Counted from the first letter of the whole stretch, positions 26,031 through 63,690 are shown. The stretch is 63,690 nucleotides of DNA, filler included, from 20 parts of 20 records of this genome joined end to end with filler, not necessarily neighbours in it; one strand, 5' to 3'. Program-made: numbers and translations. The notes: generated by a model not told the origin, from the sequence alone.

Positions 26031-26156
26031 TTATTGGTATCCCGCATAAGTTATAATTTCTCCATCTTTAAAAAACACGGTTTTATAAGGGTAATTTTGT
26101 TTTTTAAAAAAAGCTTCCACTTCAGCTCCTTCAATATCCATTTTAATAAAGTTAAG
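26031..26156 (-). pseudogene. Remnant of an FkbM-family methyltransferase
   Basis: The intergenic frame reads LNFIKMDIEGAEVEAFFKKQNYPYKTVFFKDGEIITYAGYQ-stop; KMDIEGAE is the FkbM motif. The N-terminal part is missing. Confidence 0.7.
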
Positions 26157-27150: not shown

Positions 27151-29609
27151 GATCTTCTATATGTTTTTCAATGAATTTATTTGCTAATTTTATACTTATA
27201 CTCCGTCCGAGCCTGCCCTGAGTTTANNNNNNNNNNNNNNNNNNNNNNNNNNNNNNNNNNNNNNNNNNNNTTAATTAATTAANNNNNNNNNNNNNNNNNN
27301 NNNNNNNNNNNNNNNNNNNNNNNNNNTGAACAACGTTCCATTACCATGCTGTTCAAGTCCTGCAGGCAAGACATTTTTAAATATTCAAGGGGCCTATGAA
27401 AAAAAGCATCCGAATGTTAAAACTATGGCATCATTTTAAAAGAATTTGACCGTTATCAATGATTTGGATATAACTTTTTAGGTAGAAAACTTAAGGATTT
27501 TCGAAAGTGTGTGTGTGTTTTGTTTTTTTGGTGTTTGGACTCGTTTTCTACCAAAAATTGTTTTTTATTACACGACAAAAGGTAATGATTTGAAAATGTT
27601 CAAATTGGGTGTGGGGTGGGGTGTGTGTTACACAACAATTTCACACATGTACAATATTTTTCGTTACCAATGCTTGCACAGCGTGTTCTTATATCAGTCG
27701 GTTCCCAACAATTATCATCATTGCTCCAAATATGAAGACGACATTTATAAATTCGGAGAATTTGAGTCGAACTTGCAACTTCAATTCGATTCGCTTTTTC
27801 AGGGAGATCCTCCCAAACAATTGGCTACAAACACGCACACGCACAACAGAAATTCATAAAATATAGAATCTTGGATTACACTTTTAAGAATTGTAAATCA
27901 ATTCCTTACCAATGGAGTTTACTTTTACAAAGGACTAGTAAAGGAACTCCACAGACAAGTTCAGGCTTCTGAAGGTGGGGAGTGGGTGTGTGGGTGGGTG
28001 GTGGAGGGGATGTGGGGTGTGTGGGTGTGGGGGGTGGGGAGTGAACTCCCTGGGGCAAAGTCTTTCGTAAAAACTGGGACTCGTTTATTGATCAATATCA
28101 CTCATTTCACTTTTAGACCCATCATTGCCAGAATCATCCGGAAGTTCGTCACTTTTATCACTAGGGTTAGGGTTCTCATGAAATTTCCCAAAATTCCCGA
28201 ACATTCCTCAAAATTTCATATATGCCGCTTGCTGAAAGACCACAACCGATTTCTTACCAGTCATAGAAGAAAAAAGACAAGAATCGGTTTGTTATAGGTC
28301 CGGAATTGCTGTAGCTGGTTCCTTACGCATAAATAATCCCCGAAATGGTAGGAGATGGTGGTGCCGACGACTGAGAAGGTACTGCTTACAGTAATGCCAA
28401 ATGTTATTTAAATACGATACAAGCTCACACTTCAGTACAATTGTTTTAACGAAAAACAGTCCCATAATTGACTGGAAACTTATTATTTCAACCATAAATG
28501 AAAAGTTCTGCATTTCTTGTGCAGGATGTCCAAGCGAAAACTTCTAATATAATATGAAAGATTTCTTGCCAACAATAACACACGCTGACAAAAAAATTGA
28601 ACATGGTTGTTTTAGTTTTTTAAAAGGCCCAAATTTTAAAATATTATCGTTTACACGATTTCAACATACACAATGTCATGTGTAAGCAAGCAAGCAAGCA
28701 ATTCGACCTAACAAATCTATAGGAAAGTTTAGAAAAGCACATAGATCTTACGAATCCACGTTCAATTGTATCTCCAATTTTGTACGTCTCTTACAAATTT
28801 AGATATCGAAACGCACAACAGTATTCTGGAAAATATTCCACTCTGACTAAACTTACCAAAACTTCATTTGAATCGTTGTCCATTTGACCATTATGAATTG
28901 CAGGTGATTTTAATACGTCGTTCTAAAGGAGCAAAGACAAGTTCAGTTTGTAGCTTCATAAATATGATTCGAAGTTACATGTTAATAGTTCTAAAATTCG
29001 CGCGTTCGCGTTATCTCTTGTAATTTTTTAACTTTATACAAAAAAAAATTTGGGGTCGCTTTGAAATTTTTTGTGCACTTTCTACTGTTGGACAAACAAA
29101 CACCGAAAATAATATATTTTTGACAATTACAGAAAGGGCACAAAAAAGTTCAAAAGCAACATCAAAAAATTCTTTTTGTGTAAGTTTTTTTAAAACGCGA
29201 TAGCACAAACGCGCGAATTTTAGCTCTATTAACTTCAAAACATGTTTTTTCGTCAAATAGAAAAATCTGTTTGTCATTTATTTAATCTCCATACAACACA
29301 AATGTTTCATTAATAATTCTTTTTTAAAAAAAAGGCGGACACAATTTTTCGAAAGTACGCAAATTGTACCTGTGTGTGGGAGTGTGGTGGGTGGTAGTCA
29401 CTAAATCAAAAAGCACACTCACACTCCCCAACGTGTGTTCTACTCACAAAAAGTTTGTTTTGTAGCAAAACACCGAAATACACAAATGAAAGCTTTATAC
29501 GTGTTTTGGTATAATTCTCACGGAAATTAAAGAAAAAACAGTTATCAAACAAATTCTACGAAATAAAACTTTCATTTACCACAGCCGTTTCATGTTAAAA
29601 TAAACTTAC

Positions 29610-42697: not shown

Positions 42698-43277
42698 GTA
42701 AAATTGTTGTTGAACGGAACTATCTTCCTTCACTACTGTAGCTAGCACAGTATCAGGAATTGTTTTTCACGTCATTTTGTGTTGGCACAGGGAGTGTCAA
42801 AAATCGCCATCCGAACAGGCTTGTCAAAATCAGGTGAGTGTTATTAATTAAATGTTGTTAGAACGAGAATGGTTTTTGCCCACCCGGAGATCAACCATGC
42901 GCATTTGGTCTATTCTTTTCGGAGTCTTTTGTGAAAATGCACTCATTGTGATACATTTCTGGAGTTAATTTCCATATCTTTCTCTGCTCATTTTTCGCAC
43001 ACTAACGACACCCTTTCAAATCTTTTNNNNNNNNNNNNNNNNNNNNNNNNNNNNNNNNNNNNNNNNNNNNTTAATTAATTAANNNNNNNNNNNNNNNNNN
43101 NNNNNNNNNNNNNNNNNNNNNNNNNNGCAATGTGTAAAACTAGAATTCACAATTTTCATTTAATTTCGAAGAAACAGTCAAATGTGTTACATAAAAAAGG
43201 TTAACGGACACCAAATTAACAAAAGCAGTTTCAAAACTTCCACAGCCTCTCACACGTTGAAGTGTAAATATACATAC

Positions 43278-44614
43278 TTCATCTTTTTTCCTTTCCGGAA
43301 CAACTATTGGGTTGTCGGTTGCTTCTCTTATACACAATTTCAATTTGGAACAGATCTTACCGACTGTGTCCAAGCACATGAAACGAACTAAAAAATAAGA
43401 AAAATAAATAAATGAACTGCTCACAAAAAGTCATTTTTTTTAAAAAAAACTTATGTTTCGAATTTGTAGCGTAAATGCGGAAAAACAACCACACAAAATT
43501 CTTTATGTTTCGAATTTGTAACGTAAATGTGGAGCTTTTGCAACTGGCGACTTTCAAGATTCGCTAAGTCAAAACAATCATTCAAGTCAAAAAGTGTATA
43601 TGAACCATATCAAGGAATAACATCACACTCCCTGCTCATTCAGAAAACCACCATTTCGAAAAATTTGAAGCACAACTTCGGCAATAGATTTTGATGTGGT
43701 TATTGCACCACTAAAAGTTTAAAAGAAATGGAAAGGGTAGTAAAACGTCACATTTGGCACAGAAAAGTTTTGACATTTGTTTTCGTGTTTTCGCTGTTCT
43801 CTGCCTAACAGTTTCTTTTTAACAAAATCTTTACCAGTGTTCCCACCTCCCTCACACCACACCCCACACATACCACTCCCCCAGTTTTCTCCACAGCTCA
43901 AAAACTTTGGCCACTCAAATTGGTTTGAGCAAAATAGTCAAAAAAGCCTTTTCGCCCCCGCGTGCGAAAAATATACATTAAAACTACATATTGAACACAA
44001 TTTCGCGCTGACGGAAGATATGAAAAAACAATGAATGAACTTTAGTTTTTTTCGCACACTTATTGTAAAATTAAACTATATGGCTCGTCAACATTTATTG
44101 TTGCAAACAAAACCCACGGCGTTGTAAAGTTCTTCTTCGAGGTGAAAGGAAGCCCGGAAAAATATTTATACTTAACTTATTTTTGGAGTGTTGTGAACAT
44201 ATATGCATACGTCACTTCATATTTTTGAGCAGTGGGATTTTTGCCATTGCTCAAAACATTTCGTCACTAAACCCCACACCCACACACCATCAATCGACCC
44301 ACTGATTATATACAAAAGGCAAATTAAAGATCTTGCGTGCTAAATTGGACTAGCATGTTTGACAACTCACCTGATTTTTCTTCGTGTTGTGAAATATGCC
44401 CCTTCAAAACAAAAACGAGATAGTATATAATCGATTCAGCGGCAGGCCACTCAGGAAGAAACAAAACAGACAACAAATCTTGCACAAAATCCTTCAACAG
44501 GTCCTTTTTAACACCGGATGGACTCCGAATTATATTATCCATAAAACGTTTCACAAAAGCGTGAGCTTGTCTTGGTGATGTCACATAAGGTTCAACAAGC
44601 GTCTTTTTAAAAAT
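43278..44614 (-). CDS. NIPBL: Cohesin loader NIPBL/Scc2, internal exons 44371-44614 and 43278-43387
   Basis: In-phase splice gives DFVQDLLSVLFLPEWPAAESIIYYLVFVLKGHISQHEEKSVRFMCLDTVGKICSKLK, matching the FVQDLL...PEWPAAE...R...LD..G motif of NIPBL/Scc2. Confidence 0.82.
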
Positions 44615-45672
44615 CTAAACAGCACAAAAATACAACAATCCCTTTTGGCACATGTTTTTTGGGGTTTTAAAGAATCACCCGTGCTACTGTTTTCTTCGCC
44701 AACTATTTTTGTCGTAACATACAATGTGCAAAGAGGAAAAACACACTTAGTTGAAACAAATTGCAGTATCAACAAAAAAGTCTTCAGCATGCCGCCCTTG
44801 TTTTGGAAATTGTAAGACAAATAGACATGTATGACATTTAGCACAAATGAAATTTTCAATGTATTTCAAAAAAACATGTTGCTTGCTTGAAGAAATTAAT
44901 ATTTTAGCAGATATATTAACTGTAAATTAAAAAAAGAAACATAAGATATACGCACATTTAATTTCCAAACAAGGCAGGTTAAATGTCCTTTTTGTCGTAA
45001 ACGTGCACATTTTCAGTGTGTTTTTTGGAGCATAAAATATTTTTTCACATCTTTTGGTATATTGCTAGTGCATTTTTAGGAAAAAGGACAAGACACGGGT
45101 AGAGTTGTCACTGAATGCAAGCAACAGATACCACTACCGTACAGTACCGAAATGGAAACTTTTTTTTACTGTATGTCATTTTCGTGACTTTATTTTGCGT
45201 GTTCGCTTCTGTGGGAATTCAAGTGAGAANNNNNNNNNNNNNNNNNNNNNNNNNNNNNNNNNNNNNNNNNNNNTTAATTAATTAANNNNNNNNNNNNNNN
45301 NNNNNNNNNNNNNNNNNNNNNNNNNNNNNAAACAAAAATAGTTTAACCGAACTTAGATGAATGTCGTTTAAAAATGCAATACAGCGGGCGCAGCGCACAA
45401 TTTCTTCAAAAGTTGTATTCCATATTTCCAAAAAATAAGGAACAAATTGTGGAATCGGTCCACCGCAAACTCAAAAAATCGGGGTACTCAGGCCTTCACC
45501 AAGCGCAAAATATTTGGGATAGTTTGCCCACCCCAAACTTATAATTTTGGGGTACTCAAGCCCCCTCAAAAATTTGATTTGGGGTACCGTTACCCCTCGT
45601 TCCCCTCAATTGGAGCAAGGATACCAAACCAAATTAAATACAGTCCGGTCAGCTTACTCGTTAGATTCTTAC

Positions 45673-45865
45673 CTGAGGAACAGGCATGAAGAAAGACGAT
45701 CAACGTGTACACGAAACTCACCTCAAAATCAAATATTGTTGTATCTACAAATTTCAAGATTACTGGCTCTTCCTTGCCTTCATTAATCCATGTGGCAGAA
45801 CAAATTTTACTGTTCTCGCCCTTTCTTATAAGTTCGATCTTATCCAAAGTACATTTGTCAATACA
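45673..45865 (-). CDS. Exon resembling a degenerate protein-kinase N-lobe
   Basis: IELIRKGENSKICSATW...EPVILKF...FDFEV resembles subdomains I-III, but the Gly-rich loop is eroded. Confidence 0.45.
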
Positions 45866-48508
45866 CTACAAAACACAAGAGAAGTCAATCGTTTAGCGGC
45901 ACTCATCTCATTCATCCAGTGTGTGAATAAGCTTTAAATAATTTCAGTGAATCAACTAGATTTACTACGTAGGTATATTCCAATGTCATGTATGCGATTT
46001 TTTTTTACCTGAAGACTTCACACACCAATGGCCAAAAGTTTTAATTTGCAATGGCGGGAAGTATATTTGAAAATAGCGCTACTTTTTTTAATGAATAATT
46101 TCATCACATGGTGGATGCAAAAAACGTAAAATTTTCAAAATTTACATAAGACACTTGCTACACCGCTTTGCTCAAATGCAAATATGAACAAAACTCAATC
46201 ATGTTGAAACCCTCACAAGTTTTTAAAAAACACTAACATGGGAAAACTCCGACGAGTGAAAAATGTAAAATTGTGACAAATGTAAAATGTTACGCATATA
46301 ATATTCAAATGTGTACGAAATTCACACGCACATACACACCCACACAGAGAGAGATAATAACTTGGGGTGTTTAAACTTTCGATTCTATTAAACAAACTAA
46401 TCTCAAAGAATTTTTCAATAAACAAATACTCCTGCATGTGAATTAAACATAAGAACAAATACTCCATGTCCTGAACAATGGTATCATGTTCTGCCTTAGG
46501 CAGGTGTTATCTATCCCTCCTCCCATCCCACTGAAAAGGAGCAAAGCTTCCTACCACGAGGGTTTGCTCACGTTCAATAGCTTCAGGGAGGACTGCCGTA
46601 TTTATTTTATTGCAGACAAGTTTGTCAGACTTTTCAAGTACTTCAACACATTTAAATCAGACAGGAGCTGACTTGTGTGTTACTTTGTTGCACTCATAAC
46701 AAACTTTCTATTAAATAAAATACAATACTTTTCATTTTCAGGAAGTTTAATTCATCGCGAGTGAAAAACATATTTCTGAAAAAAGCAACAACGTACCCGG
46801 ATTGTATGCACTTGGACAATCTCCATTTGACAGGAGGAGTGCCCTTCCGCACATTTTGCTTCACATCCATCGTCACCCTCATTTTCGCTCACACGCTGAG
46901 TATTCCCTTCGCATTTCACTTCCTAAGAAAAACATACGCTTGTTGTCGTGCTTATTCTGATATTTTTGCCAAAACATAATTAACCCAAGTTTAAATTCGC
47001 ACCTCACAGAAAACCTCATTGTAAACGGTTTCTTTAAATAAATATGAAATGTTCACAAAAACAATTAATTCCCCAAAGAGACTACCTGCATTCCACTGCC
47101 CGTGTGTACTTCATAAATTCCAGGTTTTTTAGACATTTTGGCGTGATTAATTAATCGTGATTTGTTAAAGCAGCAATCGCTTGATTTCTTCCCATGGGTG
47201 TATTGATTTAAATATCAAACCTAAAAACACATGAAAAATAATGCATGGCTTTATATTGCCACGTGAAACATGTCACGTAAAACTTTGTTAGAACAGAGAA
47301 CAATAAGTTAAGGTGGTAAATCTATCTCCATTTTTCAAAACCTACCTTTCAGTAAANNNNNNNNNNNNNNNNNNNNNNNNNNNNNNNNNNNNNNNNNNNN
47401 TTAATTAATTAANNNNNNNNNNNNNNNNNNNNNNNNNNNNNNNNNNNNNNNNNNNNCACAGGTAAATATCCGATTTTTTCTAGGGGTGGTAAATTACCCC
47501 CGATGCTGAAGCCGTGGGGGGGTAAAACTCAGAATTGAATTTTACCTAGTGCTTAATCACTACCAAAAAAAATTTCGCTGGCGCGTGAAAGACTGATTTC
47601 CAAAATTCAAATTAGACAGGGCTACTTTACTCTCGGAAACCAATGCCAGGATGACCGCCGCTTCAACGAATCCCGAGTCGAGTCCATCCTGTTGAGAAAC
47701 CTGTCAGTACCGCGTCGCTGTTGTAAAATGACTTTTGCTGGTGTCGGCAACCCAAAATCGTTGTCTTGAATGCCCGACGAATTTGGCACACATTCAAGAC
47801 AGAGTCTCAAACACGGCAAACCAACCACAAACTAATCTAGCCGTGTTGCACGAGCGCAGGGGTGATAGTTTCCCACTCAACTGGGACAAAGAAACTCCAA
47901 AACCTCGTCCTGATGGTACCCATCTTCCCTGGTTATTGCAGCTCAAGTCTCAAACCAGCAAGCCCCAAGTTGGAGGCAAACTGTTGAAAGCCTTGTAATG
48001 TGTGTTGTACGAATCTGCCAAATTTTCTCTTGGCAAGAACCTTCAATCGGACGAACAACCTCTTTTTGCTGTATCGTTCATTCTCAACAAACGTGGCTTT
48101 CTTGGACGATATTGCAGCCCAAATACAAAAACTGTCCCAGCCCAGATGAGCACATGTGTTTCTTGGTGGCGTTGCTCAGTCTTAAGCCAATGAGTTTCAC
48201 ATTGAATCCAACCCACTGGGAAACTTTACGGTGTGAGCTGAAGTGACACCGTCACATTTTTAATGAACTCGCGCAGATGATGGATGTTTTGTCTTGAATG
48301 TCCAACGTATTCTACACATTCAAGACAGACTCAGCAGCATGTCCAACAAACAGCAAACCGACCAAAACTTTTTGCTGCATAAGTATGGGAATACCTTAAT
48401 CTAACAAAGTTGTTTTATTTGAACGACATTTACTTTACCAATCGATTACAAGAACGCATAGCTCCATCACCATCAAACACAAAAACTCAGGTTGCTTCAA
48501 CTTTATTC

Positions 48509-50320: not shown

Positions 50321-50997
50321 NNNNNNNNNNNNNNNNNNNNNNNNNNNNNNNNNNNNNNNNNNNNTTAATTAATTAANNNNNNNNNNNNNNNNNNNNNNNN
50401 NNNNNNNNNNNNNNNNNNNNGCCGTTCTCCAACCAGAAAATCTCCTAAAAGAATTAAAGCTATTACCCCCACCGTTTTTATAGGAACTGTGGACCTTTCT
50501 GAATGTCTGTCGAAAACTTCTTACACGCTTTAGAACTATCGGGTCAGTTGACAATGGGTCACTCCATTTCCCCAAAAATAAAACTTTCAGAAAGAGAAGT
50601 GATTCGGTTTTCAACGGAAATGTAAACAGCCATGGACGCAAGGTGATATCTAAGGCAAGAAATTTGTAAGCAACACCTATTTCGAAACAGTCGTGCTGGC
50701 TATTTTCAAAACAAAAACGTGTTTTCTCTGTTGACATTTTTTCCAATGTGACGGGAAAAATGTTTAGCAGCAGACGTGATAGTTTTAAATTGTGTTGGTG
50801 GTTTATAAAATCGCTCAAGACTCAACTAAGAGAAAAGTTATCTTGATTTATTTCTACATGCGAATTATTTTTCCACACACCAACGCGTTTGTCGTGCGCA
50901 ATATTCTGTACACAGGAATTAATTTGCCGAGACATAAAATTGCCTATATATTTTAACCAATTTTTTGTCAAAACAAAATGATCAAATATTTACTTAC

Positions 50998-51381
50998 TTC
51001 CAGTCAAATTCATCTTCGTGGTCACTGTCGCTGGAATTATCACTTGAATGGCTATCACTGCTACGACTTCGCGGCCTATTCCTACTGTTTGTACGTCGTG
51101 TCAGCGTTTCACTTCGCTCCTTGACGTCTTTGCGCTCTATTAAAATCACATTTTTTTCAAATATCTTGATGAAAATTCTATCCGATTAATTATTTTTTTA
51201 AAAAAAACTTATTAGATTAACCGAAATCGTCCTTATTCCCACACACTTTTTGGGGTTTTACCTTTTCTGGCTGACCGCTCATCTCTCCCACTCCGCGTGT
51301 AGCCTCGGTGGCGACGCCCCTCAAACTCAGCAACGCCTCTGTCAATGTGCTCTTCTTTGGAGTATCTTTTCCAGCGCGACA
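50998..51381 (-). CDS. Spliced Arg/Ser-rich eukaryotic protein, probable 5' exons (boundaries approximate)
   Basis: MSRWKRYSKEEHIDRGVAEFEGRRHRGY... and ERKDVKERSE...RPRSRSSDSHSSDNSSDSDHEDEFDW, the latter ending at a GTAAGT donor. Confidence 0.4.
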
Positions 51382-54356
51382 TTTTTATTCTGAAAACTAA
51401 AAAGGACACACAACATCATAAAAATGTTCATCACCAAAAATATTTGTTGTTACAAAAAATGTGTTTTTTAGCAAGAAAAGCCGATACCACACACTCCATA
51501 CGTCAGATTCTCGAAAATGCCCAGATATGCGACTGATTTGTCAATTTAAAAAAAAAATCAAATGTTCGAATTTTGTGCATTTTGTGTTCAAAAAGTATAT
51601 TGCGTAAAATGAACAAAAATGCCAGATTTATAACAAGATCCAAGTGAAATTGCTTTGGTCCAGCTCAACAGATGATTAAAAAAGAAAGTACTTGTCATGA
51701 CCAACTTCAAATTTCATAGTGGCGTTCCTTTGAGGAATCTATGAATGTTGACGAAAACTAAAAATTCCCAGCCAACTTTTTTAAATATGATTCTACGATG
51801 CGTGGGCATCTTGAGTATATATTTTTTGTGCTGAGGGAGAAAAGAAACTGCTTTTCATTTAAGTGCACGTTGATTTTTGAGCTTCGGAATAAGACTATTT
51901 TTCTACAAACCATATGTAGATACTCATTATGCTTTTTGTTTTCACGACCAGCCACTCATTTCTTATTGAATTTATTACTGGATTTTCATTTGGGTATTTT
52001 AAGATTGATAAACTGACTTTCATTGGAGTGTGGGGTGGTTGTAGGTGAGTGTGTGCGCGGGTGTGGGTGGTAGTAAAATATTTATCACAAGATTAATATC
52101 GATGTGGACACTGTCAATTATCTAAAAAAACCTAAACCAAAAGAAAATGAAGTTTTGTTGAAGGAGTGGAAAGAGATATCATTTTAGATTACTTTTTTAC
52201 TTACTTATGTAGCTGAATACTGCCCGTGGTAGGTTCACACCAGTTGTGATGTAAATTATCAAGAGCACAAAACCGATCACGAGTATCCAAGGCCAAGGTA
52301 TCATGTGGTCCCTAAAAACAAACAAAAGATTGATTTACAAATCTGACCTCAAAACATAATTTCAACTGGAGTCATTTATCACATTCATGTGCTTAGGATC
52401 AGAAATGAAAGATATTTCGCTTTTTCGTAATTTTTGCCAGATTTTTCGTACACACGTTTGCTCAATCCACTCTTGTACTTTCCGCATACACGTTGTTCGA
52501 CTTTTATAAAAATAAGCACCAGTGTATTGGGGTATTTTGAGGTGTTCAAAAATCTTCGAACCTGAGTATATAGGCACAAAACCTCGCCTAAGCGTAAAAG
52601 TTTTTCAATTTTTATTTTGCAAAAAATCACAATTCATATTTTTNNNNNNNNNNNNNNNNNNNNNNNNNNNNNNNNNNNNNNNNNNNNTTAATTAATTAAN
52701 NNNNNNNNNNNNNNNNNNNNNNNNNNNNNNNNNNNNNNNNNNNTGATACGAGATAATGGACACTCCTTTTGAAATCGGAATGAGGTGTGGGTGTTTATTT
52801 GGAAAAATCGAAAAGCAAATATTTCCTATTTTCGGAGTGGACTTGGCTTTTTGAAGGCGATGAGATAAGTGCGTGCCTTGATGGGTTTTTTTAGGCCACA
52901 GTTTTTGTAGTAATTTCACCACATTTTCTCCGAAAATAATCTCACCACACAAACAACAACTCTCAAACCAACTCTCAAACCTCACATCAAGACGCACCTC
53001 TCATCTCTGTAACGCCAACTGTCATCTTCAATCAAACGCTTTTCCAGTACAATTGCTTCTGTAACACCAACTGTCATCTCCTACAACTGATTGAACTTCA
53101 ATCGCATCTTTCAATTCAACATCTTCAAGAACCAGCAACTACCACTGCAAGAAATTGTTAATGTTCAGTTTCCGAGGACTGTGTGGGTATGTAAGTGTGT
53201 AACCGTGTGATTTTTGTAACGGTGGTTTCAGTTTGTGTGTTTAGGGCTTATTAAAAGTTCAAAAGCACACAAGGTGATTTTATGGCTCACAGGTCTCGGT
53301 TTTTGAAAATTCAGGCACATAGTACACCCGACCCGTTCTACAGAGTAGTGGTGAGAATATGTGATGATGCTCGTTTGTTGAACCCCACCCACCACACACC
53401 CACACCACAAATTCTGAGAATCATCACATAACCTTTTTGAGAAAAGATTTTTGACGAATTTAGTAGCGACGTAGCTCACAATAAATGTTTTTGTTTCTAA
53501 AAACATACTTTGTTTTTTGTTGATCTCTGGTCGTGAGATTGTGGGCTGTACGTAATTGTTGCACGACTTCACACCCTGCAATACTAATCCAAACGAAAAT
53601 TTTTATCCGAACGAAAATCTGCAATCTTTATGCAACTTTTAGTTGTTTTTATAGAAAAAGTATACGTTGTTATGTTCAAGGATCTTATAGATGGTAGTTT
53701 TTTTCTACCCTTTTTAAGAAAAGGGTTTTAAAAAAAGTTCAATGCTAAAACGTAAGGACAAACAAAATTTTGTGCAAAACTATGTTTTGTGATGTTCATT
53801 TTTAGCAAACTACATCATTAGATTTGAAGATCATTTCTCTTTGCAGGACCGCAACTTTCGTAGATGGCAAAAAAGGGAAATTGATGATCGATAAGGATGT
53901 TTGTCCTATATTTAGTCCCAGTAAGTATGTAATGAAATATAGAAAAAATATATTATGTAGAAAAAATGCTTTTGTATTTAATGCTTTGGTGTTTTGTATT
54001 GAAAATTGCTTTGTTCAGCTCTGTTTTCATGACGTGATAATGTTTTTAAATACAATATTGTAATATAGACGAGATTTTAATACATCTTTTTGTTTTTCCC
54101 ATGCAAAACGAGATTTACCCATTGGGTTAGTAATTATAAGTCCAAACATTTTGGAATTTCAAAAGACGTGGCCTGAAGCGCCAAAATGCCTTGAGAAGTT
54201 TTTCGATAAACATGTTCTACGCATCATAACATTCATTGAATTTCCAAAAAGCACAAAAAATATATGTAAGAAATGCAAAAACACAAAACTTTGGAGATGT
54301 TTTCGTGCGAACCATCAATGAATAACCTGTTCAAGGGTCTTTTTGGGAGGAGGTTT

Positions 54357-54400
54357 ATGACAAAAAATTCAATGACAAAAAATTCAATGACAAAAAATTC
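54357..54400. repeat. 15-bp tandem repeat, about 3 copies
   Basis: ATGACAAAAAATTCA repeated head to tail. Confidence 0.85.
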
Positions 54401-55274
54401 TACTTTCGGGAGATGTGAAAAAAGATGTTGAAAAGATCTTGTTATATCTTGATTACTCTTGCACCTTCATGGAGATAACTCTTGCGTTGAATATGTTTCG
54501 AATGATTTTTCATTTGAAATCAAGGAGTATAATATTCGAATTAATTTTTGATATCATTTATTTTTCGGGTTCACAAAATACACAAAATACACAACAAAAT
54601 CAAGAATTGTAGAGTAATTCCTCACAAAATATGTGTTTCTGCAGTGTGTTTCCAATGCTTGGTTGTGTATTGAAATTTAAAGTTATTCTAAAAAATTTGC
54701 TCTTGTCCATTTTACCTTCCAATAGCAGGGAATGAGCGATTTTGATACTTTTAATTCCAATCAAGTGTGATGTTTCATGAATTTTCATAGTGTGAATGAA
54801 TAAATAGTGCATGAATTTTGAAGTGAAAACATTGATGATAATATTTCGAAGTCTTCCATTTCAGGACTGTATTATGTTGGATTTTATATTGCACCATTAT
54901 TTTTTAAAATGTTTGTTGGTAAAAAATTTTATACGCCAGTTTCAGGCATTTATAAAAGTTTGCAAGGTGTTTTCGAGTCCTACGAGGTTGTAATTATTCA
55001 CCAAAAACAGGAACTTCACAAAAAGATGCGAAATTTCACTTCAGATTGTGCATCAAATTTTCTGTGTGAAAAAAGATTTTTGTTTTGAATGAGCAAAAGT
55101 CTTGCGCAGGTGGTCAAAATTGTTGATAAATATTNNNNNNNNNNNNNNNNNNNNNNNNNNNNNNNNNNNNNNNNNNNNTTAATTAATTAANNNNNNNNNN
55201 NNNNNNNNNNNNNNNNNNNNNNNNNNNNNNNNNNGCAGGCCCAAATAATCCAACTTTGCCTTAAAACATAACAT

Positions 55275-55327
55275 GTGTAAAGAGTGGTTGTCAGAATACT
55301 ATTATTCTAACTAACCACTGTTTACAC
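55275..55327. terminator. Long imperfect hairpin downstream of the GIY-YIG gene
   Basis: GTGTAAAGAGTGGTT-GTCAGAATA-CTAT-TATTCTAAC-T-AACCACTGTTTACAC, 8 nt past the stop codon; terminator function is inferred. Confidence 0.5.
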
Positions 55328-55335
55328 TTTGAAAA

Positions 55336-55758
55336 CTAAGTTCGGTATACAGTAAAATTTGTATTAAGTAAAGCCGCTTTACCTGTAGATTTAACTGTAG
55401 TTTGATCAAAAGGGAAGGAGTTAACATATTCTGTATTAACCGGAGGTTTATGTTTGAATATATATGTTGCTTCAACTCTGAATCTATCATCTCCAGAAAC
55501 TTCGCCAAATGAAAAACATAATTCATTACCTGATCTCACATGTTTTCTCCATTCATCCCATTTTTCATGATTCTTAATTCTCTCGTTAACGTTCTCTGAT
55601 TCGCCAATATAAATTAGTTTCTTTAGACTAACTGTTTTTGCTGTTGTGTTATGCGTGCATTCGTATACAAAGTACACTCCTGGTTTTGATGGAATACCAC
55701 TGATGTTTGGTTTTCTCCAATATCCGTCAATATCAATATTATAAGTTTTTGATGCCAT
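55336..55758 (-). CDS. Stand-alone GIY-YIG nuclease superfamily protein
   Basis: PGVYFVY...LIYIGES.NVNERIKNH...RVEATYI...PPVN: the Tyr, Tyr, Arg, His, Glu and Asn of the fold are present in order. Confidence 0.88.
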   Translation of the reverse strand: MASKTYNIDIDGYWRKPNISGIPSKPGVYFVYECTHNTTAKTVSLKKLIYIGESENVNERIKNHEKWDEWRKHVRSGNELCFSFGEVSGDDRFRVEATYIFKHKPPVNTEYVNSFPFDQTTVKSTGKAALLNTNFTVYRT

Positions 55759-55762
55759 TTTA

Positions 55763-55996
55763 TTAAAGTTTTAAGTTTTTCAATTTTTTAAATGATTTAT
55801 CTAAATCAGTAAAGGCTTTGTTTACATCCTTTAATCCCTTTTTAGTTGTACCATTATTATCTATTAATTTAATTTTTTCATTACAAGATTTACAAGTAAT
55901 TGTTTCTTGATTGGAGACTTGACCAAGAGTAATAGTGAATACACTATTACAACTCGGACAATTTCCATCAATTTTGTGCTTATTTAAGTTCAACAT
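55763..55996 (-). CDS. Small zinc-ribbon protein (77 aa)
   Basis: CPSC and CKSC pairs followed by a basic amphipathic helix; spaced 4-5 nt from both neighbours. Confidence 0.75.
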   Translation of the reverse strand: MLNLNKHKIDGNCPSCNSVFTITLGQVSNQETITCKSCNEKIKLIDNNGTTKKGLKDVNKAFTDLDKSFKKLKNLKL

Positions 55997-56001
55997 CTCT
56001 T

Positions 56002-56259
56002 TTAAGTTACGTTAATTGAATATCTAACAGAACCACCTCTTCCTCCAGTATCTATAATTAAATGCCATGTTCCAGTTCTAGGAGCTGAGAGACTATATGG
56101 AGTTTGAGTTGCTAATCCACCGTAATAAGTGTATTTTCTTTTGTTCCTGTAATTTTGATAGTTTGTGCTATCTAAAAGCAAAACATTTGCTTGCTTATCC
56201 AACGTAACACTCACACAATCATTTGGTGTAAGCGTAAGTTCTTTATGTATGTAATTCAT
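56002..56259 (-). CDS. DUF1883-domain protein
   Basis: Motifs VTLDKQANVLLLDSTNYQNYR, YYGGLA...PY.L..P..G.WHLIIDTGG. Confidence 0.8.
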   Translation of the reverse strand: MNYIHKELTLTPNDCVSVTLDKQANVLLLDSTNYQNYRNKRKYTYYGGLATQTPYSLSAPRTGTWHLIIDTGGRGGSVRYSINVT

Positions 56260-56286
56260 TTTTTTTAATATTTATTATTCTTTAAT

Positions 56287-56311
56287 AAGCCAGTCCTTTA
56301 TGGACTGGCTT
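56287..56311. terminator. Perfect 10-bp hairpin inside the small-gene cluster
   Basis: AAGCCAGTCC-TTTAT-GGACTGGCTT; the T-rich tail is stronger on the + strand than on the - strand. Confidence 0.65.
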
Positions 56312-56318
56312 TTATTAT

Positions 56319-56468
56319 TTAGCTAAGAGTTTTAGATGCAACTGATGCACCAACAACTACTATTACGGCTAAAACTGCTATTGTAATAATGTTTGCATTT
56401 TCATTATAGAACTTTGCACAAACATCTTTATAACAGATTTCTGCTTTACTATCGTAGATTTTATTCAT
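56319..56468 (-). CDS. 49-aa small membrane protein (below the ORF-track cutoff)
   Basis: MNKIYDSKAEICYKDVCAKFYNENANIITIAVLAVIVVVGASVASKTLS: a Cx4C motif plus one C-terminal TM helix. Confidence 0.65.
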   Translation of the reverse strand: MNKIYDSKAEICYKDVCAKFYNENANIITIAVLAVIVVVGASVASKTLS

Positions 56469-56533
56469 ACGCTAATCGTTTAAATTATAACTTCCTTCAT
56501 TCAAAGCGGTGAAGGTTTCGCTTGTTTAAAATG

Positions 56534-56707
56534 TTATTTTTCTTTTCTAACACCCTTGAATTTACCTCCTGAAGTTTTTACATCCATAAATCTTCCTGTA
56601 TTTGCATCTCTTTTCACATACAGTCCAGTTTTAGGATTTTCAACTTGAGAACGATTTTTTACAGCTCCTTTTCGAGCATTATCTCCTGTTGGTTTATTTA
56701 CTGCCAT
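56534..56707 (-). CDS. 57-aa basic small protein (below the ORF-track cutoff)
   Basis: MAVNKPTGDNARKGAVKNRSQVENPKTGLYVKRDANTGRFMDVKTSGGKFKGVRKEK, preceded by AAAAGGAGGTG. Confidence 0.85.
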   Translation of the reverse strand: MAVNKPTGDNARKGAVKNRSQVENPKTGLYVKRDANTGRFMDVKTSGGKFKGVRKEK

Positions 56708-56767
56708 TTTTTACACACCTCCTTTTCATTTATTTAATGTTATTAAGTATCTTTCGTAATTATACTG

Positions 56768-56797
56768 AAAGCGTTACTTTACAATTTGTAACGCTTT
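56768..56797. promoter_or_regulatory. Perfect inverted repeat in the divergent promoter region
   Basis: AAAGCGTTAC-N10-GTAACGCTTT; each arm presents an outward-facing GTAAC. Confidence 0.7.
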
Positions 56798-56815
56798 TGA
56801 GTATGTAGTGTGACA

Positions 56816-57487
56816 ATGGAAACAGCTATCAAAACATATAAAAAATATGATGCCGAAGAGTTATTGGTAGTGTTATCAATGAAAGATGATGACCCTGAAG
56901 AAGCTAAAATTGCATTTTTTGAATTGGTTGATAGATTTATAGATGAACTATTAAGGTATTGTGTTACTATGTGTAATACTGAAAATAATTCTAATAAGAG
57001 TCAGGTAATTTTCGACCCTGAAGATGCTAAAGAAATTGTTTGGAATGCTTTCTATCGATTAAAAGATAACCCACATAAATTTGATTTAAATAAATCTAAT
57101 ACCGGTGATGTTGAAAAAGCAGTAGAAGCCTATCTGAAGGGATTTGTTAAGACAGAATTCAAGAAAAAATATTTTTGTGTAGAAAAAGTAAAAGTTGAGT
57201 ATGACTATGAAATAGACATTTCGGAAGAGGGTGTTCTTATGCCATCTAGAAAAGTTTTAATGATGATGACAACTGAAATTGAACAAGCATTATCGGGTCT
57301 CACAATGAAAGAAAGAGAAGTTTTTTTGGCGTATGCAGAATTTTGCCCAAATGGTGAGTATTTACCAAGAGAAATTTGCACTCTATTAAGAGAAAAATTA
57401 GACCTTGGTGAGTCAACATTACGAGTATATAGAAAAAGAGCAAAGAAGAAAATAACTGATAGATTAAATATATTGAATGGCAAATAA
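56816..57487 (+). CDS. Divergent ECF-like sigma-70 family factor
   Basis: Region-2-like AFFELVDRF...DAKEIVWNAF...KFD...AYLKGFVK; region-4-like ALSGLTMKEREVF...LDLGESTLRVYRKRAKKKI. Confidence 0.75.
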   Translation: METAIKTYKKYDAEELLVVLSMKDDDPEEAKIAFFELVDRFIDELLRYCVTMCNTENNSNKSQVIFDPEDAKEIVWNAFYRLKDNPHKFDLNKSNTGDVEKAVEAYLKGFVKTEFKKKYFCVEKVKVEYDYEIDISEEGVLMPSRKVLMMMTTEIEQALSGLTMKEREVFLAYAEFCPNGEYLPREICTLLREKLDLGESTLRVYRKRAKKKITDRLNILNGK

Positions 57488-57812
57488 GAAAAGATATATC
57501 AATACTGAAGCAGAGCTATTAAAGGCAATGCGTAGCACTGGCTATTGTTTTCCAACGAATCAATTTGAGCAAAAATTAAGCTTAAAAATTCAAGAAGAAA
57601 TAGATATTGAAAAACTTTCCAATTCTATTGACCCTGAAACTATATGGAATTCAAACGAACCTATAGAATATAAAAAACCAACCATTGTTAGGGAGTTGAA
57701 TACAGATAATCAGATAGAGAAGGAGTGGGGGATTGTGGCTAAAGGAAGTGCAAATATTTCAAAAGAAATAATGGATAAAATTAAAAAGAATCAAAACAAG
57801 AATAATCAGTAG
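57477..57812 (+). CDS. Hypothetical 111-aa protein coupled to the sigma and peptidase genes
   Basis: Overlaps the sigma gene by 11 nt and the peptidase gene by 1 nt; no TM segment or obvious HTH. Confidence 0.75.
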   Translation: MANKKRYINTEAELLKAMRSTGYCFPTNQFEQKLSLKIQEEIDIEKLSNSIDPETIWNSNEPIEYKKPTIVRELNTDNQIEKEWGIVAKGSANISKEIMDKIKKNQNKNNQ

Positions 57813-58627
57813 TGAAAGTCAGCTTTACTAAAAACAGAAAAAAGCAGTTAAGTGATTTAGCTCGTGAAATTATTGAACTTTTTGATTTTGAAAGAGAGAT
57901 TTGTCCAGAAACAATTGCTAAAGAAAACGATATACAATTCTATTATGATAATTATGGATTAGAGTCTGATGGTAGTGGGTTTGAAGGGTTACAAATTTAT
58001 GATGGAAACTCATTTCACACGCATATTAATCTTGACCTTGTTTGGAAAAAAGATTCTACAAGATCAAGGTTTGCATTCGCTCACGAGTTGGGACATTTTT
58101 TTATCCAAGAGCATCATTACGAGTTGAAAAATGGGTATCACCCTTCTAAATTTGACCCAAAAGAATCAAGTCTCATTGAGCTAGAGGCTAATTATTTTGC
58201 ACGTGCTTTATTAATTCCTGAAATGTCGCTGAAAGAATTTTGTTTAAAAAAGGCGTTCTCATTAGACCTTGTAAAGGAAATAGCAGAAAATTTTAATGTT
58301 AACGACTTGACCGCCATACTGCGATTTGTCGAATTTGGCACATATCCATTAATGGTGGCATATTGTAAAAATGGAACCTTAGAATGGTTTTCAAGAAGCG
58401 AGGATTTTCCATTCAAAGCTTTTAAAACTAAAGTAGGTCAATCTGTTCCTCCAACATCTGTTGTTGGAGAATATTTTAGATTAGGTCAAAAAGCTAAATA
58501 TACTGATGTTGAAACGATTGATGTGGATGACTGGTTTTACTATAATGGAGATGAAGATATAACGCTTAATGAACAATGTTTTTATTCAAGTTATGGTTAT
58601 GTAATAAGCTTAATTTGGCCGCATTAA
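57812..58627 (+). CDS. ImmA/IrrE-family metallo-endopeptidase
   Basis: Motifs RSRFAFAHELGH (HExxH), ELEANYFARALLIP and IAENFNV...AILRF, plus a C-terminal extension of IrrE/CapP-like length. Confidence 0.9.
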   Translation: MKVSFTKNRKKQLSDLAREIIELFDFEREICPETIAKENDIQFYYDNYGLESDGSGFEGLQIYDGNSFHTHINLDLVWKKDSTRSRFAFAHELGHFFIQEHHYELKNGYHPSKFDPKESSLIELEANYFARALLIPEMSLKEFCLKKAFSLDLVKEIAENFNVNDLTAILRFVEFGTYPLMVAYCKNGTLEWFSRSEDFPFKAFKTKVGQSVPPTSVVGEYFRLGQKAKYTDVETIDVDDWFYYNGDEDITLNEQCFYSSYGYVISLIWPH

Positions 58628-61600
58628 AAATGAAAAAACTCATTAAATACGCCCAACATTTCACCAAGCTTGAATTAATAAAAGCTCGGTTANNNNNNNN
58701 NNNNNNNNNNNNNNNNNNNNNNNNNNNNNNNNNNNNTTAATTAATTAANNNNNNNNNNNNNNNNNNNNNNNNNNNNNNNNNNNNNNNNNNNNTCTTAACA
58801 CGCAAAATGAAATGTGTTCCCCCGCCCAAGAGAAAGAGCGCCCAAAAAATTGAATTGCCTTCTGCTCATTCTCTCGAAAATATTGTTGAATTTTTCTTTC
58901 GGGAACGTACAGCTGGAACGGTACGCTTCATTTTGAAAAGAAATACTTGTGGTTTTTGTGAAAAATAAAAAAATTACAGAATCCTCAAAAAAACATGTTC
59001 ATGCTCGTTTTCGACAAATTTTATTCCTACACGCATTTTTTATTTTCATGTTTTCTGAGCAAACTCCAAAACAATTCGTTCTCCTTTTATTACGTGTTGC
59101 TTGGATCTCATTTCAAGTGTTATGAAATAGGGTTGAATCTTATGGTCTAGCTTATTCAAGCATATCAGAAGTATGACTTGCTGACTTAATTGGGTGGAGT
59201 GTGTGGGAGTGGGGTGTCGGTTGGTGGGCGCTATGTGACTCAAATTCACAAGAAAATATTTTTCGCCAAAAATAAATATTTCCTCGAATTTTCACTAAAA
59301 ATGATTAATTTCACTAATTCCACCCAATCTATCTTTCATGGAAAAGCGATAGAGAAGTGTGAGCATATTCACAAATTTAACCAGTGTTAACAAAAATTGT
59401 GAAATATTAACACTAATTTCATCAGAAGATGTGAAAAAATAGGTGAAGTTTTGAATAAACGAAAATATTGTCATTATTATTAATAAAGTAAAAAAATCAA
59501 AAGTTTACTTGGTGGATTTATCATATGTTCAATTTTTCAATTTTGGAAGGGTGGCTTTTTACTGAAAGGAGGTGGGAGTGTTAGGTGGATTATGCATTGA
59601 TATACACTACATGGCTTGAATTACATGTATTTCTCTCAATTGTCCATAACAATCACTTACTCCACCCGCGCCTTTCGAAGGTTTATTTTCAAAAACAGAA
59701 GAATTGATTTATTTCGCGAAAATTGAGTAGCAAAAAGCTTGACTTTGAAAGGTATGGAAAAAATACCTTTGAAAGTCCCATGTGGAAAACAACATGTGGC
59801 ATGTTTCTTTACAAATTCATGAAAAGTATAGCAACTAAATATATACAGACCAAAGAATGACGAAGATATTAAATTTCATTTGTAAAAAATCCAAAACGCC
59901 ACAATTTTCACTATTTTCTACAATATCTGAAATTTTTGTTTGGGTGTTCAGGTATGATACCTGTTTAGAATTGTTAATCATTTCACATTTTTCAACCAAG
60001 TTTCAGTCCGTGAGGTGCATTTTTGTAGAAAATGCTAAATGCAAAATTCTATTTGTATTATTTTTGTACCCAGACTTTGTTTGAAAGTAAGCAGGCAAAA
60101 CGTAGTTGGAGATCGACGTCTCAAACGAAAGCATTTATATTTCATGATAACATTATGTGAAAAAAGATGGAAAATTTTGATTGAAATCGAAACGGGGTTG
60201 GTTTATTTCAAAAGCACTCAAAACCCAAAAAATCTTTTACGAGGAGTTTATTCATGGTGTGGTGGAGTGGGAGGTGGATGTGTGTTGATTCATTGATATG
60301 GATTGTACTCATTTGTCGATTGTAATGTGATGTAGAGATTATGAAGGCGTTCTCGCTTTACGAAGCTAGGCTTTTGGTGAAGGACGTTTATCGTCACATA
60401 GAAGCAAATAGTCCAAGCGCGTCAGAAGAAAGTTCTGCGGTATTGGATGAAGCGAGTGATGTGACGCTTGTAAGTTTTCTATTGACTACGATTTTGAATT
60501 AAGTGGGATGTGTGTGTATCTGTGGGTTTGTATTTAAATTTGTATTTACTCAAGCTCACGAACCACACATGTTGAAAGCGTTGTAAATATGGAAGGATAT
60601 TTTGTGGCACGTACCAGTTTGCAAAAACATGGATTTTGACGTTTTGAATGACGAAATACAGTACATATCTTCCTCTTTTATATATATCCACTCTGACAAC
60701 CTTCCACCGTTTTGAAAATTGAGAATTTTAAAACATTTTGGTTTTCGTGAGGAAGCGCCCCCATGCCACACAGTCACCCCTTGGATTTCAAAACTTACAT
60801 TTCTTAAAATTTCATGAAACTATTTTTAGTTTCCATCATCATTTTCTTTCGCTCCACATGTGAAATTTGTAGTAAAATCTTATAATTAATGTGGTGCTCA
60901 GACTTTTTAATGTGAAAACCAATTTTTCCCTCTTTGGTCTTGTACGGACCAAAGTGAAATATGGTTAGACTTTCGGGTCAAGAGAAAATAAAATGAATTT
61001 TTGCATTTTCGTTTTCAAGTGAAATTACATGTGAAAAATTGAAAAATTATTTTTAGGGATTCACATTTTTCGCGTTTTCACACTCTAAGACTGAAAATGT
61101 ACCCGAATAACGCTTTTGCGAACAAATTAGAAAATACTAACAATTTTCCCTTGGTTTGATTGTATTTAGCATCATCTTTGCTATTTTTAGATTGAAATCC
61201 CACAGGCTGAAAACAGGCAAAGCACAATGTTTTATGAAAATATATACTTCAACATTCTATTCTGGGTTACAAAATTAGTGGAAGCAACAAAAAATAGAAT
61301 TTAGACACCACAATTTGTCAAAGAGAGGGGGGTGGTGTGGGGTATGGGTGTGTCGGAGCAGGTGTGTGGTGGGGGTGGGGGTGGGGGTGAGGGAGATNNN
61401 NNNNNNNNNNNNNNNNNNNNNNNNNNNNNNNNNNNNNNNNNTTAATTAATTAANNNNNNNNNNNNNNNNNNNNNNNNNNNNNNNNNNNNNNNNNNNNTTA
61501 AAAACAAACGTGAAAGTTTGAGAAAAAAACCAACAACAACAACTTAATTTTAAAAGACGAATTTGTCGTGAAAAATGGACCCACTCCTACCCACCTACAC

Positions 61601-63690
61601 ACCACAATTTCCGAAGGATGTCCCACAAATTCCTATTTTCGAAGGGGGGTGGTTGTTTGACGATTAGTGCTCTACGCTCTGAAAACGCATACTCCCATAA
61701 TGAACACACTCAAAATTACAAAAATACGTAAACAGCAGAGAATCTGCCCTTGTATTGGAATTCGTACAATATCAAAGTTGCTCTCCCCACTCCGCCACAA
61801 CACTCGTGTTGAACTGAAAGCACTTTTCATTTTTGTCGACAGTAAAATGGCTTCTCTGAGGTATTCTCTTTCACCACAAATGCGGAGGAGTTTATTTGTG
61901 GCGCCGGAATGAAAATTAAAAAGGCGGGAAATAATATTGTTCATTTTTCGATATGAATTTTGTCGCCGGTTTGTTTATGAAATTTCTGTAGAATCCAAAA
62001 GTGGATCACCTCCCTTCTTCTTACCCCTCCTCCACCCCCCACTCCACACCCCAAAACAGAGCACCAGTGAATTCCAATGCGAATTCCATTTCAATGAAGT
62101 AATTGATATCTATTCACAAAACATCAAATCAAGAAAACCTGAAATTTCAGGTTGACGGAGAAAAACAAATTTGTAAGATTTAAAATTCTAAATTTTCATA
62201 TAATGCGAATATTTGAATTATATTCCGCGCTGAAACATTCGAAAAGCATCAAACACCCCACCAAAAAATAAAATTTTGAAAACAAACATGTCGTTTACGA
62301 ATAAAAAGATGTAAATATCCCATCGTTTTTCCAAAAAGATTCATTTCAAAAGTGGAGTTTTATTCAATTGATTTATTTCCCATGGAAATGTTAAACAAAG
62401 TAAGAAACGTCGGTGTGATAGCTTGAAATTTCCCCTTTGCACAAGCCAAAAAATTGTTAGGTGGTTGAATCCACAACGACCAATATTCTCATCTTGTGAA
62501 TTTATATTTTAGATGTTCTCCAGTAAGGAGAAATTGGCCCTACGCAGAAATGTAAAGGTAAGCTCATATTTTGTCATATTTTTTTGTGGTGAAATTTGTC
62601 GGTTTTTTGGGATACCACCCACCTTTTGTAGTCAGATTCGAAGGTGTCTTTGCGCCTACCACATTGGATATTTTTCATTATTTGTGTGATGGTGGCTATT
62701 TTTCACAAAGTCGGCTTATTTTGTTTTTGTGTTGTACCGCCACAAAATGAAAATATTTTGCGTAGAACAATGAAATTTTTAGTTTTTAGATTGCGTTATG
62801 GGGCGTTTTCTCGAAATGACCCGCCCAGCCAAAGAGGCCTGGGTATCTTTGCAGAACTTTCATCTTAAAAATTCACTTATGAGATAGATGCTTTATACAA
62901 ACTCCAGAATTTTTGTGATTTTTGTCGTAAAACACCCATCAAACTATTTTTCGCGAATCGAAATTGAATTTTTCATTTTGCATCGTTTGTTTAACAGAAT
63001 TCAGCTCGTGTGCATGTAAGCTCAATTAGCTTTCTTTGGGTATTTTTTTTGCATGCACACGTCGTTCTATCTGGCTTATTAATCTCATGAATTCCAAATT
63101 TACTCTATGCGATTGGGAAAACGTGCTTTGCTAACCCCTTTTTGCAATTGCGAATTCGGTTAATTATTAATTTTTGTTGAATATATTTCACAAAAAACGT
63201 GAACATTTTTTGTGAAACGCAAGAAAGTGTTTTCACTTGAAATTCTACAAGAATGAACACAGAAAGCACAATTACGGGTGACGTAAGTTTTTTAATTTTT
63301 TTAAAATTATTTTTCTTGAATTGTTTTGTGAAATGCCGTATAATATGATACCAATTGAGACGAAAATCAAATGCAGATCTCATGAAAAATGCATGACGAG
63401 TATAAATTAATGTATGGTGAGTAAAATAAGTGTGTAAAAATGGTAAACTGAAACTTTCCACCCCTACATTTTTTCACAGTCATAAAAAATTTGAAGGCAA
63501 CTTGGGATTTTCTTTTCTGGAGTTTTTCTGCAGTTTTCTGCTCTAGTAGAAAATATGAAAAATTCCCGGCGTAAAAGTAATTTTTTCTTTGAGTAGAACT
63601 ACTTTTTAAAGGCCGGGAATATTGGGATTGAAAAGGTCATTCCCGGTTCCCTGAAGATTAATTTCAAAACTATGCTCTTTTTTTGAAAAG

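Follow-up and report, generated by a model that had tools for sequence, protein, structure and literature searches.

How is a locus controlled in which a metallopeptidase of the CapP family is encoded beside a sigma-like protein and a small protein of no known family, the two standing in the place of the helix-turn-helix (HTH) repressor CapH? The question is raised by positions 55235-58692 of a 63,690-nt stretch of DNA (hereafter the window, at its full length), where three plus-strand genes, encoding the sigma-like protein, a 111-aa partner and the peptidase (together, the triad), stand back to back with five small minus-strand genes for a 57-aa basic protein, a 49-aa protein, a DUF1883 protein, a zinc-ribbon protein and a GIY-YIG nuclease (Table 1). 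The answer that we favour, and regard as rather probable, is a portable switch, or 'controller of adjacent pathways', in which CapH has been replaced by a private sigma factor of the extracytoplasmic function (ECF) type and an anti-sigma factor of a new family, which CapP would cut. It would probably switch on neighbouring stress or anti-phage genes, not de-repress them.

The locus corresponds to exactly one contig of 3,458 bp (GC 0.313). The window is a concatenated draft assembly of 20 short contigs (2.0-8.5 kb) with linkers of the form N44-TTAATTAATTAA-N44 between them; the flanking contigs are therefore unlinked to the locus, and this contig is its whole context. All eight open reading frames (ORFs) reported in the initial annotation were recovered in the ORF listing, each of them intact. 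The plus-strand genes overlap by 11 nt (sigma/111-aa) and by 1 nt (111-aa/peptidase), and the divergent sets lie 108 nt apart (56708-56815), in agreement with the earlier description of a gap of about 110 nt that holds a perfect palindrome. Since every gene has homologues, and since the triad recurs with a short intergenic motif in 14 other loci, the arrangement is more than a chance one.

Judged by its sequence, the peptidase is a CapP and not just an IrrE-like protein. Its residues 10-269 match positions 2-240 of the 242 of the PADLOC capP profile, that is, over the full length (1.4e-51); Pfam Peptidase_M78 was matched at 1.1e-11 (45.1 bits, cut-off 22), and sequence searches of the PDB returned CapP 7t5t at 4.1e-6 (query residues 82-269) and the IrrE orthologue 8slm at 1.5e-6. 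The IrrE-type HExxH peptidase predicted at the outset was thus confirmed, and the PADLOC search proposed with it assigned the peptidase to capP and the 57-aa protein to PDC-S38. Between HELGH and the downstream Glu, in ELEANYF, there are no cysteines. The window protein therefore lacks the 'cysteine switch', which is found in many, not all, CapPs according to Calloji et al. (2026, bioRxiv 10.64898/2026.05.16.725639).

The sigma-like protein, for which 28 homologues were found, is modelled as a two-domain ECF sigma factor. The AlphaFold2 (AF2) model is helical, has a sigma2 plus sigma4 layout and reaches a predicted local distance difference test score (pLDDT) of 84; in a Foldseek comparison with the PDB, its 11 best rows were all ECF sigma factors, at probabilities of 0.95-1.00. 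A search of the PDB by sequence profile gave nothing meaningful, and a distant relative in one other locus (L057) reached 24.3 bits against Sigma70_r2, for which the cut-off is 24.

The 111-aa partner has no HTH and belongs to no known family. It had zero matches in Pfam, PHROGs, PADLOC and NCBIfam, a PDB search with its profile, at E values up to 10, came back empty, CapH included, and the ESM Atlas gave no usable match. Modelled alone (AF2), it shows short helices and no HTH, at a pLDDT of 65 and a predicted template modelling score of 0.21. That it might be a degenerate CapH was considered and dropped for want of sequence support in PADLOC or in the profile search of the PDB, and the earlier statement that the locus encodes a non-HTH protein in place of an HTH repressor holds. 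The partner has 21 close homologues and its family is small: out of 1.84 billion proteins, 36 representatives reach E<=1e-3. Nearly all of them are of 103-123 aa, and in the family conserved N-terminal and C-terminal blocks flank a variable linker.

Complex prediction supports, and does not prove, the proposal that the partner binds the sigma factor. The median interaction score (ipSAE, interaction prediction score from aligned errors) was 0.68 (runs 0.65, 0.70 and 0.68), with all three controls at 0.00, against a mark that 51 of 78 solved complexes and 2 of 108 mismatched pairs attained; contact agreement between runs was at least 48% and partner pLDDT at least 52. The modelled interface joins partner residues 6-24 and 43-66 to sigma2 (31-83, 117-122) and sigma4 (147-221), a placement that would correspond to the clamp mode of cytoplasmic anti-sigma domains on ECF sigma factors. 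The partner tail (residues 67-111) lies outside this interface, yet conservation across the wide family peaks there: A88, R/K89 and A/V87 are each kept in 39 of 39 sequences, and an amphipathic helix, I-x-D-K-I/M-K-K-N-Q, follows the residue-89 site. In CapH, Calloji et al. (2026) place the CapP cut between F82 and R83, with the next helix docking on a hydrophobic surface; the P1' residue is thus Arg there, and the partner tail offers Arg or Lys at the presumed P1' position.

Recurrence of the triad was examined by peptide-pattern scans of species-representative genomes, metagenomes and IMG/VR. These returned one locus among 44 candidate stretches of species-representative genomes (L001, in a metagenome-assembled genome of Roseivirgaceae), six triad loci among 115 metagenomic candidates and, with partner peptide patterns, none among six candidates in IMG/VR; the plasmid collection held no partner match. 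The wide partner alignment was too diverse for a pattern scan. When a sample of 401 Bacteroidota genomes, taken around that of L001, was searched by profile, 14 proved to have the partner family. The loci of 11 of the 13 new genomes were inspected, the two weakest (E about 7e-4, within frames of ~490 aa) being excluded; a sigma gene lies upstream in eight of the 11 (by profile) and CapP downstream in nine (by phmmer), with gene order kept and most of the genes overlapping. The remaining cases vary. In L056 a 228-aa ORF fills the sigma slot but shows no detectable sigma signature, and L058 has a lone partner-like ORF amid small same-strand genes. In L060 (7617-10371), a variant module adjoins a Multiubiquitin-E2 + E1 operon and consists of a 266-aa ORF, a 281-aa protein that matches the partner N-terminal block over its first ~60 residues, and a caspase-family protein in CapP's place (Peptidase_C14, 3.4e-14); the switch design may therefore work with another protease. 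Gene order and overlaps thus establish the triad as a conserved unit, as had been supposed. Nitrosomonas nitrosa is named as the source of one partner and one sigma homologue, and the module accordingly crosses phyla.

In the 15 loci in which that side is visible, the triad is always divergent from a cargo, and the cargo differs. Eight, among which L001-L004 are close relatives and not independent counts, face a cyclic oligonucleotide-based anti-phage signalling system (CBASS), called by PADLOC in L001, L004 and L051-L054 and from the effector start only in L002 and L003. Three (L050, L056, L057) face an operon of Multiubiquitin or YukD-like protein with E2 and E1 (Bub/Bil type). Single loci carry a metallo-beta-lactamase-like gene with an E2-E1 fusion (L059), a lone DUF1508/YegP-like gene (L055), a 41-aa basic protein with a 415-aa unknown (L006), and the small-gene set of the window. 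The supposed linkage of triad and divergent genes therefore stands in so far as the triad always faces a cargo, and fails as regards the identity of that cargo.

Additional observations were made around these loci. Some 4 kb away from the triad of L006 lies an IetA-like AAA ATPase (L006:3255-4277, minus strand; PADLOC 1.8e-70), which suggests a defence-island setting for that locus, and in L052 another defence gene, a full-length AbiEii (L052:10209-11258, minus strand; PADLOC 4.2e-137), is found directly downstream of CapP. None of the loci examined showed CRISPR genes. Downstream of CapP, L004 encodes a 422-aa protein of no known family; in the window, a truncated ORF begins 3 nt past the CapP stop.

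The intergenic palindrome is a perfect inverted repeat, AAAGCGTTAC (56768-56777) and GTAACGCTTT (56788-56797), with 10 nt between its arms. It resolves into two copies of one asymmetric site of ~17 nt, approximately (G/C)T(A/C)ACG(C/G)TTTT-N1-2-GTAT, and in every locus where the motif was found each copy points at the gene that it precedes. The same plus-strand 17-mer is present in L006, whose sigma protein is just 65% identical to that of the window; L001-L004 have a near-identical version of it and carry three copies of the site, two of them facing CBASS, and related sites occur in L050, L051, L053 and L057. The divergent copies are 10 nt apart in the window, L006 and L002-L004. In L001 the gap is 6 nt; L051 and L053 have one of 0-1 nt, L057 and L059 one of about 40-50 nt. 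A spacing that ranges from 0 to about 50 nt argues for two independent directional sites, and the notion of a single dimeric operator was set aside as unlikely.

The motif is also private to the triad module, as follows from counts at three scales. In the L001 genome (4.8 Mb) it occurs three times, always in the triad intergenic region, with none for a reversed control pattern; in the 63.7-kb window, the plus-strand site is the sole match at one mismatch or fewer (0.01 expected); and in IMG/VR, 17 exact matches were put down to chance, none of the 17 loci encoding the sigma factor or the partner. A degenerate pattern, derived partly from the same loci in which it was counted, gave 15 matches in the stretches upstream of sigma genes (13 x 250 nt) and two in the remaining 225,753 nt.

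A sequence resembling a Shine-Dalgarno site, GGAGGTG, precedes the first cargo gene in the window (56708-56726, minus strand) and in L006 (8552-8568, minus strand). Strong Shine-Dalgarno sites are uncommon in Bacteroidota. The element may be a clue to the host or to translation control.

The first two of the small genes are recurrent companions of the triad. The 57-aa protein matches PADLOC PDC-S38 along residues 1-57 of 57 (2.4e-33) and phrog_12550 (9.6e-29), and in L053 a PDC-S38 gene, 69% identical (1.1e-29), occupies the same promoter-proximal slot, ahead of CBASS. PDC entries are untested candidates, detected because they lie embedded within other systems (Payne et al., 2024, the main text of which does not name PDC-S38). 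In L006 (8426-8551, minus strand), L052 (8098-8223, minus strand) and L054, the slot is taken by a very basic 41-aa protein (MAKD..GKKFNRIP..KGK), for which no family match was obtained. In L052 and L054 the 41-aa gene is followed by one for a 51-aa protein that has a CxxxxC and a C-terminal hydrophobic helix, like the 49-aa protein of the window. The 49-aa protein and the 51-aa protein of L052 were also compared as possible homologues and rejected as such, with no BLAST similarity between them; layout, size and position are what they share.

The GIY-YIG nuclease has 466 homologues, and the best 120 of the 466 are 60-90% identical; the sources named on a few rows span several phyla and include Bacteroidales, Flavobacteriaceae, Anoxybacillus and Halomonas. 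Its residues Y29, Y32, Y50, G52, R60, H64, E96 and N108 are invariant in 24 sequences, and we take them to be of catalytic type. The Pfam assignments of this protein and of the DUF1883 protein agree with the earlier ones. For sigma (90%), partner (87%) and GIY-YIG (90%) alike, the closest homologue is listed with the same source and with a longest contig of 168,910 bp, which points indirectly to the same linkage of triad and GIY-YIG on an independent long contig.

Table 1. Genes and intergenic sites of the contig at 55235-58692 (window coordinates)
Feature	Position	Strand	Remarks
ECF-like sigma	56816-57487	+	223 aa from ATG; in-frame GTG at 56810
111-aa partner, candidate soluble anti-sigma factor and CapP substrate	57477-57812	+	
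CapP-family (M78/IrrE-type) metallopeptidase	57812-58627	+	271 aa, HELGH
Further ORF, first 21 codons	58630-58692	+	ATG 58630; ended by contig edge; frame of ORF 58576-58740
57-aa basic protein, PADLOC candidate PDC-S38 / phrog_12550	56534-56707	-	GGAGGTG in front
49-aa protein	56319-56468	-	CxxxxC and C-terminal hydrophobic helix, from sequence
DUF1883 protein	56002-56259	-	85 aa; Pfam 6.7e-25; phrog_9211 2.6e-26
Zinc-ribbon protein	55763-55996	-	77 aa; two CxxC pairs from sequence; zinc-ribbon profile matches sub-threshold
GIY-YIG nuclease	55336-55758	-	140 aa; Pfam 23.8 bits, cut-off 22.6, 5.6e-5
Directional motif GTAACGCTTTTGAGTAT	56788-56804	+	Points at triad; 28 nt before sigma ATG
Directional motif GTAACGCTTTCAGTATA	56777-56761	-	Points at small-gene set; 70 nt before 57-aa ATG

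From these elements we infer cleavage, a degron, promoter use and a role for the cargo, in the following manner. At rest, the N-terminal two thirds of the partner would wrap between sigma2 and sigma4 and keep sigma off RNA polymerase. By analogy with CapP and IrrE, the peptidase would be switched on by single-stranded DNA arising from damage or phage replication, and would cut the partner at the invariant (A/V)-A | (R/K) site, here A88|K89, of its conserved tail, which sigma leaves free. The fragment left would end in ...VA (..AA in most relatives), presumably similar to the ClpXP degrons that ssrA and RseP-cleaved RseA carry; its degradation would release sigma. Sigma, or a complex containing it, would then act on the two back-to-back directional sites of ~17 nt, the triad-facing one driving the triad itself as a feedback and the cargo-facing one driving the 57-aa and 49-aa genes, with read-through to the DUF1883, zinc-ribbon and GIY-YIG genes.

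Several results weigh against this switch, and some of them lend themselves to an alternative that we think unlikely, namely that repressor logic has been kept and that the sigma-like protein, with or without the partner, binds the motif through its region-4 HTH until CapP, by cutting either the partner or sigma, lets a host sigma factor transcribe both operons, as with CapH. The earlier designation as ECF-like stands as to the two-domain fold and the Foldseek matches, and falls below the cut-offs of family profiles: Pfam Sigma70_r4_2 scored 17.5 bits (cut-off 25.7) and NCBIfam TIGR02937 20.8 bits (cut-off 42.9), and the Foldseek E values were weak (0.012-0.039, none <=0.001). The motif does not have the geometry of a canonical ECF promoter, in which a -35 element (xxAAC) and a -10 element are 16-17 nt apart; GTAACG and GTAT are separated by only 7 nt. 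GTAACG was moreover ruled out as a canonical -35 of the triad operon, because the sigma start codon lies only 28-36 nt further on, the triad-facing motif starting 28-35 nt ahead of it in six loci, and because the first sigma codons evolve as coding sequence (codons 4-21, compared with L001, differ 9/1/13 times by codon position). The motif stops 12 nt short of the sigma start codon in the window, and in five other loci about 15-19 nt short of it, a usual position for an operator. Going by the letters, GTAT could be part of a -10 element with a very short leader, and the sites could be operators or -10-proximal elements; this non-canonical geometry is what keeps repression a live rival. Against it speak the asymmetry, gene orientation and variable spacing of the sites, unlike a single dimeric operator, the retention of a full sigma2 domain, and the modelled position of the partner between sigma2 and sigma4, where anti-sigma factors sit. 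That model in turn was predicted on single sequences, without alignments, with a low partner pLDDT in the complex (52-53), and 7 of 44 blind neighbouring gene pairs passed the same test; the degron idea is an analogy with ssrA and RseA. Read-through across the cargo faces a perfect hairpin with a 10-bp stem (56287-56311) between the 49-aa and DUF1883 genes. Its T-run trails it on the plus strand only, and it is uncertain whether it would terminate the minus-strand transcript.

Other evidence concerns the mobility of the genes, and would suit a triad that serves as the induction switch of a mobile element, in the manner of ImmA/ImmR in a conjugative transposon or prophage, with the small genes as unrelated 'morons'; we judge this improbable. 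L001 has conjugative-transposon genes, RadC, ArdC, DUF4138 and TraM, as its neighbours. Proteins 64-70% identical to the 57-aa protein occur in 16 phage records, for the most part Streptococcus prophages, and in the two records examined (L025, L026) the gene stands alone in the lysogeny/early region. The phage matches span Streptococcus, Staphylococcus and Microcystis, a conservation unusually strong for so small a protein. GIY-YIG occurs alone on a Synechococcus plasmid and in five IMG/VR loci, the five-gene cassette was rejected as a conserved unit (6 of 6 loci, L027-L032, have GIY-YIG without the other four), and a single-protein viral scan gave nothing. The five small genes, first described as one effector set, are accordingly not a fixed one, GIY-YIG and the 57-aa gene being individually mobile. 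The induction of a mobile element, however, fits poorly with 12 of the 15 loci, which face CBASS or a ubiquitin-like E2-E1 set and not excision or transfer genes, with a motif copy that faces the cargo wherever found, and with the return of the 57-aa gene to the same promoter-proximal slot in L053. The contig is merely 3.46 kb long and comes from a fragmented assembly, and with cargo genes that move individually the association in the window might be an assembly artefact or a decayed remnant, a regulator that has lost its CBASS cargo. This we hold to be very improbable, given eight intact ORFs and the 168,910-bp contig listed for the closest sigma, partner and GIY-YIG homologues, the latter being indirect evidence.

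As to the rest of the assembly, the linkers carry stops in six frames, and ORFs of at least 100 aa are few or absent in several contigs, such as 16577-22975, 43127-47356, 50421-55134 and 58793-63690, unlike 1-8472 and 23076-27226; the assembly may be of mixed organisms or of low quality. Rfam gave nothing at gathering thresholds in the whole window.

The switch that we favour is best placed by comparison with known systems. With CapH+CapP it shares a full-length protease of the CapP family and the character of a portable regulator with swappable cargo, which in CapH+CapP and in the related loci alike lies divergent and upstream of CBASS or ubiquitin-like operons. It differs in its regulator, an HTH repressor there and a sigma factor with a 111-aa protein of a new family here, so that the predicted output is activation and not de-repression; it also differs in the window CapP, which has no cysteine in the switch-loop region. 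In the window, the triad faces a PDC-S38 candidate and uncharacterised small genes. IrrE/PprI-DdrO and ImmA-ImmR likewise use M78 peptidases that induce genes after DNA damage by cleaving a regulator, but their substrates are XRE-type HTH repressors, of which the window triad has none.

A precedent for the logic is found in CalpL-CalpT-CalpS, where CalpL is reported to cleave the anti-sigma factor CalpT, expose a C-degron and free the ECF-like CalpS (Smalakyte et al., bioRxiv 10.1101/2024.05.08.593097). Protease, anti-sigma factor, ECF sigma and degron removal are thus arranged as in our model, but CalpL is a SAVED-Lon protease activated by cyclic tetra-adenylate (cA4) in type III CRISPR, whereas the protease of the window is an M78 peptidase, presumably activated by single-stranded DNA, and CalpT bears no detectable relation to the partner, whose profile found nothing in the PDB. 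The two also differ in their genomic association. In Myxococcus xanthus, an ECF sigma/anti-sigma pair, DdvS/DdvA, controls a CBASS-containing defence island (Sci Adv 2024, PMC11506125); there the anti-sigma factor DdvA is reported to be transmembrane, with no dedicated CapP-type protease, while the window partner is a soluble candidate.

Closest in composition is a single sentence that reports a sigma factor beside capH/capP in 24 systems (Lau et al., 2022, bioRxiv 10.1101/2022.04.27.489752); those systems may or may not belong to the present family. Beyond this sentence, literature searches turned up no account of a CapP, IrrE or ImmA peptidase that targets an anti-sigma factor. Of the later papers from that laboratory, Calloji et al. 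(2026), in the text searched, contains neither the word sigma nor anti-sigma and deals with repressor-based controllers only, and the CapK/CapS paper, in the passages covered, also concerns a repressor-based controller. The initial annotation went too far in knowing of no characterised system with this layout, in view of the sentence of Lau et al. (2022) and of the CalpL-CalpT-CalpS analogue. CapP controllers, and the logic of protease, anti-sigma and sigma, were already known; what is new is the proposed rewiring of a CapP controller through a sigma/anti-sigma pair.

A wider generalisation is offered tentatively, and we consider it doubtful. Such switches would be widespread immune controllers in the Bacteroidota and beyond, in which CapP activated by single-stranded DNA cuts an intrinsically disordered anti-sigma factor of a new class at A|R, an -AA degron is unmasked and sigma reads a compact, directional 17-nt promoter that departs from the canonical ECF type, with a tiny basic protein (PDC-S38 or its 41-aa analogue) and a CxxxxC membrane peptide as first-wave output ahead of the effector operon.

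The window adds to the known controllers a cargo other than CBASS, a recurrent pair of small genes and a defined, private cis element. The recurrence of PDC-S38 and a membrane peptide right behind the motif singles these two out for functional study, and the small orthogonal parts may provide a DNA-damage-gated expression module. The CapW, the CapH+CapP and the CapK+CapS controllers all remove a repressor; a sigma version, if true, would be positive and self-amplifying. The cargo would then be silent in any host or state with the switch off, and the switch would be movable between cargos together with its own promoter. Damage sensors of the CapP/IrrE kind would thereby be joined to a logic that has so far been shown only for CalpL-CalpT-CalpS.

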